Below are positions 2,443 through 23,571 of a stretch of DNA of 64,000 bases, piece by piece. Numbering within the stretch: position 1 is the first letter of the stretch; every line of letters begins with the position of its first letter. The stretch lies in NCBI GenBank assembly GCA_965207065.1, contig OZ242260.1:832001-896000 (forward strand), given 5' to 3'. The notes below the pieces were generated by a model, which saw nothing but the letters and a program-made list of their open reading frames with translations, searched no databases and was not told where the DNA came from. This DNA comes from a bacterium. GTDB taxonomy: Bacteria; UBA8248. The translations under genes were made by a program, and so were the position numbers.

Positions 2443-3207
2443 TCAGGTGGCCTGCTCCGACGCCTGCATCGCTTCTTCGAGTTGTTCCGGCGTCAGGGGA
2501 TCGCCCACGCCGATCATCGAATCGCGCGTCACGAGCTGGAAGAGTTGCGCTTCGTTCCAGTCCTCGGTTCCCGCCGGACGCTGGGGGATGATGAGATAGC
2601 GGCAATCCGCGTTCGAGTCGATGACGATGAGCTCCACGTCATCGGGCGCATCGAAGCCCATGTCCTTCAAGGTTCCCCTCGGGTCCGACACGGCCTTCGA
2701 GCGATAGGGGAAACTCTTGTACCAGGTGGGGGGCTGGCCGAGGATTTGCCTCGGGTAGCACGAACACAGCGTGCACACCACCATGTAGCGGGTCGTGTCG
2801 GTATTCTCGAGAGCCACCACGCGGTTGATGCCCGTGGTGTCGACCCCCATCTCGCCGCAGGCGGCGTCCGCGTCCGCAAGGAGCCTCTCCTTGAAGCCCT
2901 CATCCACCCATGCGCGCGCGATGATGCGCGAACCGATGGCGGGGCTCTGGCCATAAATCTCCTCCACCGCGCGTCTCATCTCGTCGGTCGTGAGAAGGCC
3001 CTTCTCTCTGAGGACGTTCATCAGGGCCATCATGCGCACCTGGTAGTAGTCCAGATCGTGCTCGACCTGGGTCACGGCTCCTTCGCGGTAGGCGTCGTCG
3101 GACTGCATCCGCGCGTTGTGCGCCCCAGGGTCCTGGCTGTAGGTGTGGGGATGGTCGCCGTGATGGTGAACATGTCCGCCGTTGTGGTGATCGTGTGAGT
3201 GCGCCAT
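2443..3207 (-). CDS. Cobalt-type nitrile hydratase alpha / thiocyanate hydrolase gamma-like subunit with His-rich N-terminus
   Basis: VCTLCSCYP metal motif, ARAWVD and PTWYKSFPYRS; GAGGAG RBS before ATG 3207. Confidence 0.9.
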   Translation of the reverse strand: MAHSHDHHNGGHVHHHGDHPHTYSQDPGAHNARMQSDDAYREGAVTQVEHDLDYYQVRMMALMNVLREKGLLTTDEMRRAVEEIYGQSPAIGSRIIARAWVDEGFKERLLADADAACGEMGVDTTGINRVVALENTDTTRYMVVCTLCSCYPRQILGQPPTWYKSFPYRSKAVSDPRGTLKDMGFDAPDDVELIVIDSNADCRYLIIPQRPAGTEDWNEAQLFQLVTRDSMIGVGDPLTPEQLEEAMQASEQAT

Positions 3208-3245
3208 GGTGTGCTCCTCGCTCACGGGGGAACCGGTGGATTCGC

Positions 3246-3533
3246 CTAGACCGGCTCCAGCCAATGTTCATATATTTCGATATAGAGTTTGTCCTGTTTT
3301 TTCCCCGCCTCGTGATCCCAGAGATCGTTGATTTCGAACTCCACCCAGTAGAGTTCCCTGAGCGGCAGGCCGTCGCCGCCGTAGGCGAGATTCTCGGGGT
3401 TTTTGTATTTGCCGAAATAACGGTTGACGACGCCCGTCTTTCCCTTCACGAAATAAGTCGTCCGGTGGTGGCCGTCGGGGTACATCTCCTTGATGCGAAC
3501 CCTGTCGCCCACGCGGTAGCGGGTTTCCTCCAT
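3246..3533 (-). CDS. Nitrile hydratase beta C-terminal SH3-like domain (thiocyanate hydrolase alpha-like)
   Basis: YRVGDRVRI...GHHRTTYFVKGKTGVV...LYWVEF...IYEHWLEP. Confidence 0.85.
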   Translation of the reverse strand: MEETRYRVGDRVRIKEMYPDGHHRTTYFVKGKTGVVNRYFGKYKNPENLAYGGDGLPLRELYWVEFEINDLWDHEAGKKQDKLYIEIYEHWLEPV

Positions 3534-20260: not shown

Positions 20261-21307
20261 ATGGACAATCAACCCCAAATCCTCACGTGGAAGAGAATAT
20301 GGCTTATTCTCATATTCATCGCCGGCATCTGGCTTCTGGTGAGCGCCCGCGCGGCGCTGGTGCCCCTCGCGGCTTCCTTCATCCTCGCCTATCTGCTCCA
20401 GCCCCTGGTCGATAAGCTGGAGAGATGGAAAATACCGAGGCCCCTCGCCGTCCTGATCCCCCTGCTGGGTTTGGGCTTGGTTCTTTTGATCTTGTGGGCG
20501 AGCATCGCGCCCGTGGTGCGAGAGCAAGTGACGGCGTTCGCCAAGAAGCTTCCCGACTACATCAAGCTCACACAATCCTGGCTCATCGCCACGCTCGATA
20601 AATTCGACCTCCCCCAGACGGCCGAACTCCAGAAATACTTCACCGAAAACCTCTCCTTGCTGAGCCAGTTTCCCGTTACCGCGCTCAGGTTCCTGCTGAG
20701 AACGACCAGCGGCATTTTTTCCATCGCCATCGGCATGATCTATCTCATCCTCATCCCCGTGATGACCTTCTATGTCCTGAGGGACTGGAAAGAGCTATGG
20801 AAGGGGTTTTTCGCCTACGTGCACCGCGACTACCGCGCTGAGGTGGAGAAAAGGGTCTTCCGGCTCGACGAACTGCTCGGTTCGTTCATCAAGGGGCAGT
20901 TGCTGATCGCCTTCATCCTCTCCGCAGTGTACGTGCTGGGCTTCTTCATCGTGGACATGCCGCTGTGGCTGGTGATGGGCATTTTTACGGGTATCGCCTG
21001 CATGTTTCCCTACGTGGAATGGATTATCGCCCTGCCGATCGCCCTGCTGCTCTCCGCACTCGGCCATCAGGACTGGCTCCACCCGCTGGCAACGCTGGCC
21101 GTGTTCGGGATCATCTCGCCCATAGCGGGCATGACCCTCGTTCCCCGCATCCTGGGCAACCGCATCGGACTTCACCCCGTGGTGGTGCTCGCATCCATCA
21201 TGATAGGGGGGGAGTTGATGGGATTCGCGGGAATCCTCCTCGCCGTCCCGCTCGCGGCGGCCATCAAGGTGGCTCTCGAGGCCATTTCAGACTACTACCT
21301 GATGTAA
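20261..21307 (+). CDS. AI-2E (PerM) family transporter
   Basis: Multi-TM protein; AYLLQPLVDKLE, PRILG.RIGLHP and GILLAVP motifs. Confidence 0.9.
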   Translation: MDNQPQILTWKRIWLILIFIAGIWLLVSARAALVPLAASFILAYLLQPLVDKLERWKIPRPLAVLIPLLGLGLVLLILWASIAPVVREQVTAFAKKLPDYIKLTQSWLIATLDKFDLPQTAELQKYFTENLSLLSQFPVTALRFLLRTTSGIFSIAIGMIYLILIPVMTFYVLRDWKELWKGFFAYVHRDYRAEVEKRVFRLDELLGSFIKGQLLIAFILSAVYVLGFFIVDMPLWLVMGIFTGIACMFPYVEWIIALPIALLLSALGHQDWLHPLATLAVFGIISPIAGMTLVPRILGNRIGLHPVVVLASIMIGGELMGFAGILLAVPLAAAIKVALEAISDYYLM

Positions 21308-21425
21308 GTTTTCCTGGACGTTCCTCGCGGTTGGCGTGAACCACCGCTCAGTGGGTTGTTGAAAAAGCCCTTGAGTGGGAAAAGGAAACCCCCTTAAAAG
21401 GGAAACCCCATAAAGGCACCCCCCC

Positions 21426-21583
21426 CTACTCGGGTACTTCCACCCCCCGGTCCACGGCGCGGGCCATGAGGAAGAGGAGGTCGGAGACGCGGTTCAGGTA
21501 GACGAGCAGGTCGGGGTTGTCGATGTAGCCCTCATCCCGCAGCTTGACCGACCATCTCTCCCCCCGGCGGATGATGGTGAGCG
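21426..21583 (-). pseudogene. Duplicated 3' fragment of the pduO-type gene (direct repeat of 23052..23204)
   Basis: 21431-21583 matches 23052-23204 with 5 mismatches in 153 bp (counted by eye); encodes LTIIRRGERW...VEVPE*. Confidence 0.9.
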
Positions 21584-21603
21584 AAATCGTCAGCCACCCA
21601 CGC

Positions 21604-22257
21604 CTAAACCTGAATCTTTCCCTCGATGAAAGCTCTGGCGCATTCGTAGTGCCAGTTTGTTTTGGTCTTCGTGTGAAACCGCCGCAGCGTGTAGCCAGGC
21701 GCTTTCGGCGCGCTTTTCGAGTTGCACCAGATATACCGGGTTCCATTGACGCCTTCGGTCAATGCGCAAAACAAGCCCACGTAATCCTTACCGCCGAAGA
21801 AAACGACATCATCCCCGGTTTCATCAGGCAGCATATTGAAATCTTCATACTGGTCTTTCTTTCGTCTGCGTTTGTACGCATCAGCGCGTGGGCTGAAGGT
21901 AATGTCATAAACAGGCGTCAGGAAATCTGAGCGGATCAAACCCCACCCCGCAGAGAGGATATAGAAACGCTCCAAACCGCAATGTTCCTTCAGGAGCCGA
22001 TAGACCGGATTTTCGTAGAGTTGCCAGGCAGGAAGAAGTCCGTGCGGGTTGCCGCGAAGTTCGGTATTGTATTCCAAAAGCATGGCTCGCCACGACACTC
22101 CTGTTTTGGAATCATCATCCGGTCGCGCGTAGGCTTGGCTCAAACCACCGGGCGCTGCGCCGGGATCGGCGACGAACAATACCTTTCGTTCATCTCGCGT
22201 GCGCAGATGGCCGGCTTCGGGATTCTTTCTTGCGGCGCATTGTATGACGAGGATCAA
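21604..22257 (-). CDS. DUF6884/YaaA-like protein
   Basis: VIQCAARK, PAWQLY, YILSAGWGLI, YDITF and FFGGKDY motifs; overlaps the stop of the upstream gene. Confidence 0.6.
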   Translation of the reverse strand: MILVIQCAARKNPEAGHLRTRDERKVLFVADPGAAPGGLSQAYARPDDDSKTGVSWRAMLLEYNTELRGNPHGLLPAWQLYENPVYRLLKEHCGLERFYILSAGWGLIRSDFLTPVYDITFSPRADAYKRRRKKDQYEDFNMLPDETGDDVVFFGGKDYVGLFCALTEGVNGTRYIWCNSKSAPKAPGYTLRRFHTKTKTNWHYECARAFIEGKIQV

Positions 22258-22976
22258 GCGGGAATTTCCATCTCATCGATCAAGCGCGGCAGTTCGTCGA
22301 GAAAGGCCGGGTCGTAGTCTTCATTGACGTGGTTCGAGTTCCAGAGTCCTGAGCTCCGGACTTTTTCCCTGTCACTATTACAACCAAGCCACGAAGAAGG
22401 CGGATCGATGGGATGCTTGCCCCAGTTGCTCAAGAGGGCAATCGCGTTCCTCTCGATGTATCCACGCTTACTTTCAGGACCCGCTTCGTCCTCGATGGCG
22501 AGCCAGAGAAAGGGCATGTCGCCGATATGCCTGCTGACGGTTCTTTCCAGGCACAGTTCGCTCGTTCTGACTTCTCGCGACGCCGTGTCCCCCATTCCCC
22601 AACAGGGATAGTCCAGACTGTCTTTTTTTATCAGGGCCGCTCCCACAATTTTCCTGAAGATCGACCCCCGGTGATTGCCGCCGCTTGTGCGCGTTATTCC
22701 TTTATGTTGTTTCAGACGCGTCCAGAGTTTGGTTTTGCTCCCGGCTTTCAGGGCGTGCGTACCCACCCGCACAATGCGCGAACCTTTCCCGGTATCGGCG
22801 CGGACTTCGCCTTCCTCCTTGAAAAAATAAACTCCGCGCTTGGGCCACCTCATTTTGCCCGAACAATCGGACAATCGGCGCGCTCCGCCGAGACGCTCCT
22901 CAAGCATTGCTAGAAGATCATAAAACCGCTTCAAATCGTCGAGGCGTGATGATGAAGACGGCTGGCTTGTCGGCAT
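22254..22976 (-). CDS. GIY-YIG-like nuclease (hypothetical protein)
   Basis: GVYFF...IVRVG...LWTRLKQH...IERNAI...WN pattern. Confidence 0.55.
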   Translation of the reverse strand: MPTSQPSSSSRLDDLKRFYDLLAMLEERLGGARRLSDCSGKMRWPKRGVYFFKEEGEVRADTGKGSRIVRVGTHALKAGSKTKLWTRLKQHKGITRTSGGNHRGSIFRKIVGAALIKKDSLDYPCWGMGDTASREVRTSELCLERTVSRHIGDMPFLWLAIEDEAGPESKRGYIERNAIALLSNWGKHPIDPPSSWLGCNSDREKVRSSGLWNSNHVNEDYDPAFLDELPRLIDEMEIPA

Positions 22977-23046
22977 GAATTATCCTAAGAAAACATTTCG
23001 ATGCGCCGGGGCACGGCGTAGATCGTTTCGCGTTTTTCGAATTGAA

Positions 23047-23571
23047 TCAGGCGGGTACTTCCACCCCCCGGTCCACGGCGCGGGCCATGAGGAAGAGCAG
23101 GTCCGAGACGCGGTTCAGGTAGATGAGCAGGTCGGGGTTGTCGATGTAGCCCTCATCCCGCAGTTTGACCGACCATCTCTCGCCCCGGCGGATGATGGTG
23201 AGCGCCATGTCCAGCGCGGCGCCGCAGGGCGAATCGCCCGAGATCACCCAGTCGGTGATTTGAATCTCTTTCTCGTAGCGCGCCACCTGCGCGTCGGCCC
23301 ACGCGACCTGCTCCGCGCCCACGCGCTCTTTGAGCCTGCCGAGTTTGCCCCGCAGCGTCGCCAGGTCGCTGCTCACGAGGTAGAGGTCTTTCTGAATTTT
23401 GAGGATTTCGGGCTTCAGCCATTCGGGGGCCGTCGAGCGGGCGAGGCCGAGCGCGGCTTTCGCCTCATCGAGCGCGCCGTAGGCCTGCACTTGGGGATGA
23501 TACTTGGGAACCCTGTCCGCGAACCATAAATCGGTGTTCCCATCGTCTCCCCTTCTCGTGACGATGGACAT
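23047..23571 (-). CDS. pduO: PduO-type cob(I)alamin adenosyltransferase
   Basis: TRRGDDGNT, YGALDE, RRGER and YLNRVSDLLF motifs. Confidence 0.9.
   Translation of the reverse strand: MSIVTRRGDDGNTDLWFADRVPKYHPQVQAYGALDEAKAALGLARSTAPEWLKPEILKIQKDLYLVSSDLATLRGKLGRLKERVGAEQVAWADAQVARYEKEIQITDWVISGDSPCGAALDMALTIIRRGERWSVKLRDEGYIDNPDLLIYLNRVSDLLFLMARAVDRGVEVPA

Follow-up and report, generated by a model that had tools for sequence, protein, structure and literature searches.

What does a small islet do that holds two genes, one for a nuclease-type protein and one for a putative DNA base reader? The islet lies in a stretch of 64,000 nucleotides (the window; contig OZ242260.1 of assembly GCA_965207065.1, positions 832,001 to 896,000 of the forward strand) from a bacterium of the lineage UBA8248. 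We call the gene for the putative reader A and the gene for the nuclease-type protein B. We propose, with moderate confidence, that A and B form a PDC-M57-type cassette that is intact and horizontally mobile and carries out modification- or lesion-dependent (Type IV-like) restriction of phages or mobile DNA. An earlier reading of the same letters (the original prediction) had suggested a two-gene defense module, possibly against modified phage DNA. That interpretation is partly supported; defense function and the targeting of modified phage DNA are candidate roles suggested by sequence.

The islet carries two overlapping genes

Two minus-strand open reading frames (ORFs) exactly fill positions 21604 to 22976, where the two genes had been placed:

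22254 to 22976, minus strand: gene B, 240 aa, ATG start; GIY_YIG_3 (PF26468) nuclease-type protein that matches PADLOC PDC-M57B
21604 to 22257, minus strand: gene A, 217 aa, TTG start; long DUF6884/YaaA-clan protein, putative DNA base reader
22254 to 22257, minus strand: overlap of the B stop and the A start, 4 nt, TTGA

Read on the minus strand, B ends in CCC GCT TGA and A starts with TTG ATC CTC, the TTGA being common to both. The 4-nt overlap makes the predicted translational coupling plausible, and coordinates reveal the same overlapping layout in most related loci. Both are real genes. Comparison with three congeneric copies gave a dN/dS (the ratio of nonsynonymous to synonymous divergence) of 0.17-0.21 for both A and B. 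At E ≤ 0.001, B has 5237 relatives among 6633 candidates and A has 1893 among 1986; in a library of representatives at 50% identity, B has 2322 relatives at this threshold, of which 555 reach E ≤ 1e-30. Between positions 21200 and 23700 we found no sigma-70-like promoter, which makes transcription by read-through from the upstream operon a plausible inference. Terminator-like sites in the same interval were at chance level (four found, 3.3 expected).

Gene B encodes a protein with a predicted GIY-YIG core fold

B matches PADLOC PDC-M57B over its full length (E = 3.2e-83, 277 bits; residues 11-236 on profile positions 3-234 of 238). PF26468.1, which the Atlas (Pfam 38.1) names GIY_YIG_3, is precomputed on a protein that is 100% identical to B over 240 aa (P0001) and on all 120 relatives listed. 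The Pfam-A version that we scanned, of which PF26468 is not part, gave no match to B, nor did NCBIfam or PHROGs.

An AlphaFold2 model of B, built from a 62-sequence alignment, had a mean predicted local distance difference test (pLDDT) score of 94.8. Since Foldseek returned nothing from the PDB at E ≤ 1e-3 (R.Eco29kI appeared only at E 0.84-1.3), our fold assignment comes from a VIA all-against-all search. In this search, 16 of 48,161 PDB representative chains reached Z ≥ 2, and nine of the top 11 were GIY-YIG nucleases. The matches included T4 EndoII (Z 5.5, 111 residues aligned, root mean square deviation [rmsd] 3.7), the UvrC N-domain (Z 4.9, second-best), a plant Grx N-terminal domain (Z 4.7), I-TevI (Z 4.5), the 5-hydroxymethylcytosine-specific PD-T4-3 (PDB 9u75, Z 4.1), R.Eco29kI (Z 3.8), and Slx1, HIGLE, and Hpy188I (Z 2.2-2.4). 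None of the Z values exceeds a modest 5.5, and the list is almost purely GIY-YIG. On the model, B appears to have the GIY-YIG core fold, a three-stranded sheet with helices. The original prediction had called B GIY-YIG-like from a motif pattern that is present in full (GVYFF at residue 48, VRVG at 69, RLKQH at 87, and the E and N in IERNAIALLSN at 174).

Conservation in the 62-sequence alignment is consistent with this assignment. Y50, R67, G72, S105, and R108 are invariant, and R70, H74, R87, H91, E175, and N177 are at least 90% conserved. Y50 is part of strand 1 and R87-x3-H91 of the first helix, and the helix following strand 3 carries E175 and N177. From motif order and secondary structure, rather than from superposition, we infer that these residues correspond to members of the GIY-YIG catalytic set (Tyr of GIY, Tyr of YIG, Arg, His or Tyr, Glu, and Asn). 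T4 EndoII, UvrC, I-TevI, R.Eco29kI, and PD-T4-3 (Z 5.5 to 3.8) have a Tyr in the first strand, an R-x3-H motif in a helix, and a Glu in the helix that follows strand 3. Unlike these enzymes, to which it has no sequence-level match, B contains Arg70 instead of the second Tyr and has additional elements: a long helix at the N terminus, a helix with HRGSIFR, and, at the C terminus, a conserved extension (WLG, SGLWN). A PDB search with the B profile returned only RbcX-like ORF134 chains, with a marginal E of 0.018 and an alignment to the C-terminal extension only; we treated it as a chance match.

Gene A encodes a long member of the DUF6884/YaaA clan

A is a long and divergent protein of the DUF6884 clan, with what is predicted to be a YaaA-like "cantaloupe" fold. 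According to those passages of the Pfam paper that treat the family (PMC11701544), DUF6884 is defined by CxxxK and LSAxxG motifs, is distantly related to YaaA, and shares with it a positively charged cleft. A has CAARK at residues 7-11 and LSAGWG at 101-106, and C7, K11, S102, G104, W105, and G106 are invariant in 59 sequences. All of the motifs on which the clan assignment had originally been based are present (CAARK at 7, LY at 80, ILSAGWGLI at 100, and YD at 117). Together, the motifs quoted for A and B fall mostly in invariant or nearly invariant columns of the 59- and 62-sequence alignments.

Profile matches to A are weaker than those to B. Pfam DUF6884 (PF21818) scored 26.1 bits, under its gathering threshold of 30, although PF21818.4 is precomputed on 76 of the 120 A relatives listed, one of them at 89% identity. 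PADLOC PDC-M57A gave a weak match (E = 2.4e-5, 22.7 bits) over 85 residues (77-161), and the PADLOC DpdC profiles matched residues 97-134 only (3e-5 to 7e-3). There was no match in NCBIfam and one weak match in PHROGs (phrog_5935, 0.012). Alignment of the A profile with short DUF6884 domains cut from fusion proteins gave an hhalign probability of 90.6% over residues 75-163; compared to these domains, A has ~60 extra residues between CxxxK and the core and ~50 extra at the C terminus.

The AlphaFold2 model of A had a mean pLDDT of 94.0. Escherichia coli YaaA (DUF328, PDB 5caj) was the top solved structure in both Foldseek (E 1.1e-3, probability 0.91) and VIA (Z 6.9, rmsd 5.1 Å over 162 aligned residues; the next row had Z 5.1). 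At 13% identity the resemblance is distant, and YaaA differs from A in being a chromosomal stress protein without a nuclease partner. Co-prediction of B and A from separate alignments scored 0.00 in two runs, which is uninformative on binding either way.

The A and B families belong together

We surveyed the partners of B in metagenomes, viruses, genomes, and plasmids. In the metagenome scan, at least 600 stretches matched, and 584 of 600 encode a relative; we kept the best 80 of these 584 by likeness to the window's B. Long A lies directly 3′ of B in 62 of the 80 loci, and B is fused to short DUF6884 in one. Ten of the other 17 have <400 nt downstream, and one of the ten (L049) still shows a partial A. 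The remaining seven (L041, L062, L067, L088, L095, L099, and L102), out of 70 assessable loci, have no DUF6884-clan neighbor. A 208-aa ORF downstream of B in L102 was considered as an A homolog and rejected (hhalign 0.1%); since this ORF is PDC-M06B, the L102 B gene is without a DUF6884 neighbor. The form found in the window therefore prevails among the metagenome loci that most resemble its B.

Viral loci often have a different arrangement. Of 19 IMG/VR loci, 11 encode short DUF6884 directly 5′ of B, one has a fusion, one has B followed by long A, and six have neither. In L019, the short partner scores 7.4e-38 (128 bits) on PDC-M57A and its B scores 1.4e-83 on PDC-M57B, identifying short DUF6884 followed by B as the canonical PDC-M57 layout.

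Fusions join the two families in either order. Among 71 listed B-family representatives of >300 aa, we surveyed 63 using Pfam. DUF6884 was present on 35, on either side of the B domain, and YaaA (PF03883) on three more, while 19 had no Pfam domain. In four fusions B comes first and is followed by a weak DUF6884 match, which in P0251 (450 aa), for example, reproduces the window's gene order in one protein. Separately, DUF7662 (PF24698, ~70 aa, function unassigned) is fused at either end to the B domain or to DUF6884-B in eight of the 63 (P0248, P0258, P0262, P0275, P0291, P0311, P0312, and P0381).

Among four genome-contig loci, three have long A, and synteny places all three in the window's own genus. 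The fourth, from a Methylocystis metagenome-assembled genome, encodes a 309-aa partner that shares only PAWQ..Y...ILSGGYG with A (hhalign 61%). A plasmid search for B gave 10 matches. On a Deinococcus plasmid, a short DUF6884 gene precedes a split B and a 211-aa ORF. On haloarchaeal plasmids, B lies beside a convergent HNH gene, with the nearest DUF6884 gene ~7 kb away. The tail-to-tail arrangement of B and the HNH endonuclease gene occurs at 6968-8569 of L006 (Haloarcula hispanica pHH126) and on four similar plasmids, and a haloarchaeal plasmid B homolog is near cas1/cas2 and an ArdC-like gene.

Phylogeny separates the two partner types. In a tree of 102 B sequences (L010-L012, L072, L004, L005, and matches of <190 profile positions were dropped), one clade of 81 leaves (support 0.91) contains 64 of 66 long-partner rows and no short or fused rows, its size being inflated by the selection of metagenome loci for likeness to the window's B. 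Another clade of 10 leaves (support 0.94) contains eight of 10 short-partner rows. We conclude that the A and B families belong together and that the pairing, which the original prediction had singled out for checking, is robust and obligate-looking: the families co-occur very consistently and are often fused.

Such pairing also evokes an abortive-infection or toxin-antitoxin-like module, in which B would be a non-specific toxic nuclease that is restrained by A and freed by infection-linked DNA damage or a phage product. The tight overlap, co-inheritance, and fusions of the genes fit this explanation, as do the small, mobile nature of the cassette, which resembles many such modules, and its position as a prophage moron (below). 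We nonetheless find it distinctly unlikely. B has no adjacent DUF6884-clan gene in seven of the 70 assessable metagenome loci and occurs alone on the haloarchaeal plasmids. With B viable in several partnerless loci, neither an unrestrained toxin nor the R half of a classical restriction-modification (RM) pair is a likely role for it. Covalent fusion in both orders also misfits the logic of a labile antitoxin.

The cassette is a variant of a catalogued defense candidate

The original prediction did not recognize the pair as a named system, and here it needs correction, given the B match to PDC-M57B, which lies in the score range of the canonical L019 protein. PDC-M57 is one of 145 candidates added to PADLOC-DB v2 by "guilt-by-embedding" (Payne et al. 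2024, 10.1101/2024.01.29.577857); according to this preprint, the PDC models derive from genes that lie embedded within BREX, DISARM, or type I RM systems. Other PDC candidates were tested experimentally; in our searches, PDC-M57 did not appear among them.

The identity with PDC-M57 goes only halfway. Both forms are two-gene overlapping cassettes with a partner from the DUF6884 clan. However, PDC-M57 is a computational candidate whose canonical partner is a 135-145-aa DUF6884 protein encoded 5′ of B, while the window's A has 217 aa, is encoded 3′ of B, and falls far short of the PDC-M57A score of the L019 partner. In addition, the B proteins that have long partners make up a clade of their own. 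Thus, the window cassette is a variant of a catalogued candidate, with reversed gene order and a long partner that the PDC-M57A model barely sees.

Our literature search uncovered no paper naming PDC-M57, PF26468, or GIY_YIG_3, and PF21818 appeared only in the Pfam paper. The literature that we found on DUF6884 contained no functional study, and nothing joined GIY-YIG with YaaA and defense, or DpdC with YaaA.

Two other systems bear comparison with the cassette. GmrSD/HEC-06 Type IV enzymes share the proposed logic of a non-canonical DNA reader combined with a nuclease, and a GmrSD_C protein occupies the same chromosomal site in a congeneric genome (below). The folds are unrelated, and GmrSD combines DUF262 and DUF1524 domains in a single polypeptide. 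DpdC, a component of the Dpd 7-deazaguanine DNA-modification system, acts on a base within DNA. Its profiles resemble A weakly around LSAGWG, with ~38 residues aligned, and span ~300-320 positions compared to the 217 aa of A. The islet has no DpdA/DpdB-type gene; this search for dpdA covered the islet and not the rest of the genome.

One prophage locus (L030, 4701-8701) has a QueC gene directly 5′ of a fused DUF6884-GIY_YIG_3 gene, which is followed by genes for a SIR2_2 protein and a nucleoside 2-deoxyribosyltransferase-like protein. The QueC neighbor may be a link to 7-deazaguanine chemistry.

These resemblances raise the idea of an RM-like pair, in which A would convert a base in host DNA much as DpdC does, leaving unmarked DNA to be cut by B. 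Besides the local similarity to DpdC profiles and the QueC gene that adjoins the fused gene in L030, the invariant Cys/Lys pocket of A suggests chemistry rather than binding alone. Against it, the DpdC similarity is confined to one short segment, the islet holds A and B only and has no gene for insertion of a precursor base (DpdA/TGT type), and B is viable without its partner in several loci. We judge this arrangement very unlikely.

The cassette occupies a small integration hotspot

As the original prediction had stated, A and B are the only cargo of the islet. The insertion that they form measures 1.6 kb and separates an AI-2E transporter gene from a PduO-type gene; two copies of a 164-nt direct repeat, 94% identical, bracket A and B alone. 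GC content is 54-56% within the islet and ~60-65% in the flanks. The surrounding features are:

23047 to 23571, minus strand: PduO-type gene, 174 aa, cob(I)yrinic acid a,c-diamide adenosyltransferase (TIGR00636, 1.4e-38)
22977 to 23046, minus strand: spacer from the PduO-type stop to the B start, 70 nt, with an AGGA ribosome-binding motif (7 nt 5′ of the B ATG)
23052 to 23215: right copy of the 164-nt direct repeat, within the intact PduO-type gene
21431 to 21594: left copy of the 164-nt direct repeat; residual duplicate of the PduO-type gene 3′ end and left border of the islet

We compared the locus across 13 congeneric genomes, the window's own genome (which has one copy of B) and 12 others of the same genus. 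The cassette is at the identical AI-2E/PduO-type site in four (G000, G002, G006, and G012), in one of which (G006) the duplicated PduO-type gene end is missing. The site is empty in four others (G001, G004, G008, and G010), where the flanking genes are 42-51 nt apart, and G009 retains a 156-nt remnant from the 5′ part of B. The rest carry other DNA. G007 has a 1.2-kb insert (L117, 740-1756) encoding a 338-aa GmrSD_C protein (Pfam 1.7e-18) that matches PADLOC Orf5 at 8e-14 and HEC-06 at 1.1e-12; G011 has a 3.97-kb insert (L116, 1167-4119) with two DDE transposase genes of insertion sequence (IS) type; and in G003 and G005 the inserts measure about 600 and 435 nt. This varied occupancy indicates that the AI-2E/PduO-type intergenic site is a small, variable integration hotspot and the cassette an accessory element.

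A and B have diverged more than their surroundings. Between species, their DNA identity is 76-79%, compared to 81-94% for the flanks. Across three congeneric cassette genomes, synonymous divergence (dS) is 0.73-0.93 for A and B, values that their lower GC may inflate somewhat, and 0.30-0.49 for flanking genes. The cassette alleles may thus be older than the species, or may have been exchanged.

Contigs from four sets of RNA libraries cover only 23052-23379, inside the PduO-type gene. Those from three RNA runs leave this gene for unlike sequence exactly at 23052, near the stop codon, as expected if relatives carry other DNA at the hotspot.

The duplicated gene end shows further particulars. The translation of an ORF at 21426-21746 repeats the C terminus of the 174-aa PduO-type protein. 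The two copies are 94% alike within the window genome and 97% in G012, compared to ~92% between species; in L010 they lie at 1502-1653 and 3126-3277. The higher likeness within genomes points to gene conversion, or else to a circle with the gene end that inserted repeatedly by a Campbell-type event. Directly left of the islet is a 77-nt intergenic element (21353-21429) that recurs many times in the window's genome (14 matches to the query in total) and also in congeneric genomes, at 80-92% identity. On the minus strand it has a hairpin and, behind it, a T-run (21404-21389), and it looks like a dispersed repeat of the repetitive extragenic palindromic (REP) or miniature inverted-repeat transposable element (MITE) kind.

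Flanking repeats are not a general insertion mechanism: 59 of 62 other loci had none, and the matches in the remaining three, of 24-32 nt, were of chance size. Among the loci tested, such repeats were confined to the window's own genus. This bears on the possibility of a selfish homing-type element, in which B, as a free-standing GIY-YIG homing endonuclease, would copy the cassette to empty AI-2E/pduO sites. I-TevI is among the fold matches of B, four species have the cassette at the same site, and the duplicated gene ends are more alike within genomes than between species. Beyond the rarity of flanking repeats, insertion sites differ widely, B retains 60-70% identity across widely different sources and lacks a separate DNA-binding domain, and the constant DUF6884 partner has no role in homing. 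We consider homing highly improbable.

Relatives of the cassette often lie among defense and mobile-element genes

To survey neighborhoods, we compared 291 neighboring ORFs from 33 loci with Pfam and ran PADLOC on 142 ORFs within 3 kb of the pair, 40 housekeeping or phage-structural ORFs having been removed beforehand. A PADLOC family matched at E ≤ 1e-8 within 3 kb in 11 of the 33 loci, a count without a matched background that makes "enriched" an impression. The defense context that the original prediction anticipated is thus present for part of the loci. The neighbors within 3 kb are:

L018 and L067: SoFic
L030: QueC and a weak ThsA-like SIR2
L031: type I RM
L046: Mrr, a PD-T4-3-like protein, and a reverse transcriptase
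L062: PDC-S32 and DzbA
L096: type III methyltransferase
L102: PDC-M06B
L103: type I restriction endonuclease
L108: CapP and E2
L110: Mokosh-like helicase, PDC-S07, and a type IV restriction endonuclease

L038 was considered as a twelfth defense locus and set aside, as it has only a Csa3-like helix-turn-helix match that we regard as generic. Pfam also revealed TIR domains in L003 and L108.

Mobile-element genes surround many of the pairs. In three lambda-like prophage contigs (L019 6258-7374, L021 4902-6153, and L028 4668-5796), the short-DUF6884/B pair lies between the major capsid gene and a cement or head-tail attachment gene, a fixed moron position. Other viral loci have terminase, portal, and tail genes nearby. 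Integrases or serine recombinases are near the pair in L031, L033, L037, L078, and L096; relaxases or type IV secretion system genes in L003, L067, and L115; IS elements in L081 and L105; a small terminase in L106; and ArdA, ArdC, or ParB in L046, L062, and L078. Neither A nor B had a match in 50,697 deposited phage genomes, which we counted in favor of a restriction role.

Restriction or repair

A restriction role is favored by the mobile, patchy, prophage- and island-borne distribution of the pair and by the embedded origin that is described for the PDC models. Several observations weigh against it. For seven loci (L068, L071, L079, L084, L091, L097, and L112), about one third of the chromosomal loci, the neighbors are housekeeping genes only. 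In the syntenic loci L084 (5739-9358) and L112 (4363-7971), the B-A pair starts ≤10 nt after the stop of ligA, the NAD-dependent DNA ligase gene, on the same strand. Three of the 63 long B-family representatives (P0326, P0366, and P0390; 709-749 aa) are fusions of a 5′-3′ exonuclease (FEN), complete with PF02739 and PF01367, to DUF6884 and B. In Table 1 of a study of lesion-binding proteins (PMC10220248), the Bacillus subtilis DUF6884 protein YfjM is enriched on abasic and ribonucleotide lesions. Because the second Tyr of the GIY-YIG motif is replaced in B (R70-V-G72), catalysis by B is not assured. The literature search found no experiment on PDC-M57 or any DUF6884 + GIY_YIG_3 pair, and none of the four sets of RNA contigs covers A or B, from which neither expression nor silence follows.

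Some of these observations fit an accessory module for DNA repair or damage processing. Here, A would read a lesion (abasic, ribonucleotide, or oxidized base) and B would incise beside it, as the N-terminal GIY-YIG domain of UvrC does, with host or fused FEN and ligase activities completing repair. The lesion enrichment of YfjM, the FEN fusions, the position after ligA, the location of several islets within housekeeping operons, and the rank of the UvrC domain among the fold matches of B all argue for such a role. The Pfam authors, in the section on this family, present an AlphaFold3 model with a base flipped into the conserved DUF6884 pocket and suggest a repair role (PMC11701544); YaaA is characterized there, and in the title of its PDB entry, as a peroxide-stress DNA-binding protein. 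A repair module is less easily reconciled with the patchy presence of the cassette (four of 13 congeneric genomes, with four empty sites), a synonymous divergence two to three times that of the flanks, the prophage moron position, and carriage on elements bearing integrases, relaxases, or type IV secretion genes. Neighbors of the RM, TIR, and cyclic-oligonucleotide-based antiphage signaling system (CBASS) types are frequent, and, as far as the account of the PDC catalogue describes, the pair originates among genes embedded in BREX, DISARM, or RM systems. We regard repair as a possible but rather unlikely explanation.

A proposed mechanism and its implications

If the pair is a Type IV-like restriction cassette, as we favor, A would scan DNA and flip a base into its Cys/Lys pocket, where a non-canonical base or lesion, the mark of foreign DNA, would be recognized or chemically processed. 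B would then nick or cleave the DNA carrying that base or lesion. The cassette, which has no promoter match of its own, would probably be read through from the upstream operon.

A more specific proposal, which we consider unlikely, is that long DUF6884 and GIY_YIG_3 constitute a new modification-dependent restriction system in which a base-flipping reader of the YaaA/DpdC fold licenses a nuclease against phage DNA with hypermodified purines (7-deazaguanine derivatives, for example). The invariant Cys7/Lys11 pocket would recognize or covalently engage the modified base. If true, this would be the first restriction reader of the YaaA/DpdC fold and would counter an anti-restriction strategy that is widespread among phages.

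Since long A scores so weakly on PDC-M57A, defense finders probably undercount the long-partner form, and a dedicated long-partner model would mend this. The FEN-DUF6884-nuclease fusions and the Cys/Lys pocket offer handles for biochemistry. To our knowledge, no member of the DUF6884/YaaA clan apart from DpdC relatives has a proven biochemical function. If the pair is a defense system, it would give this large clan a concrete role and add a reader-plus-nuclease design to the restriction repertoire.

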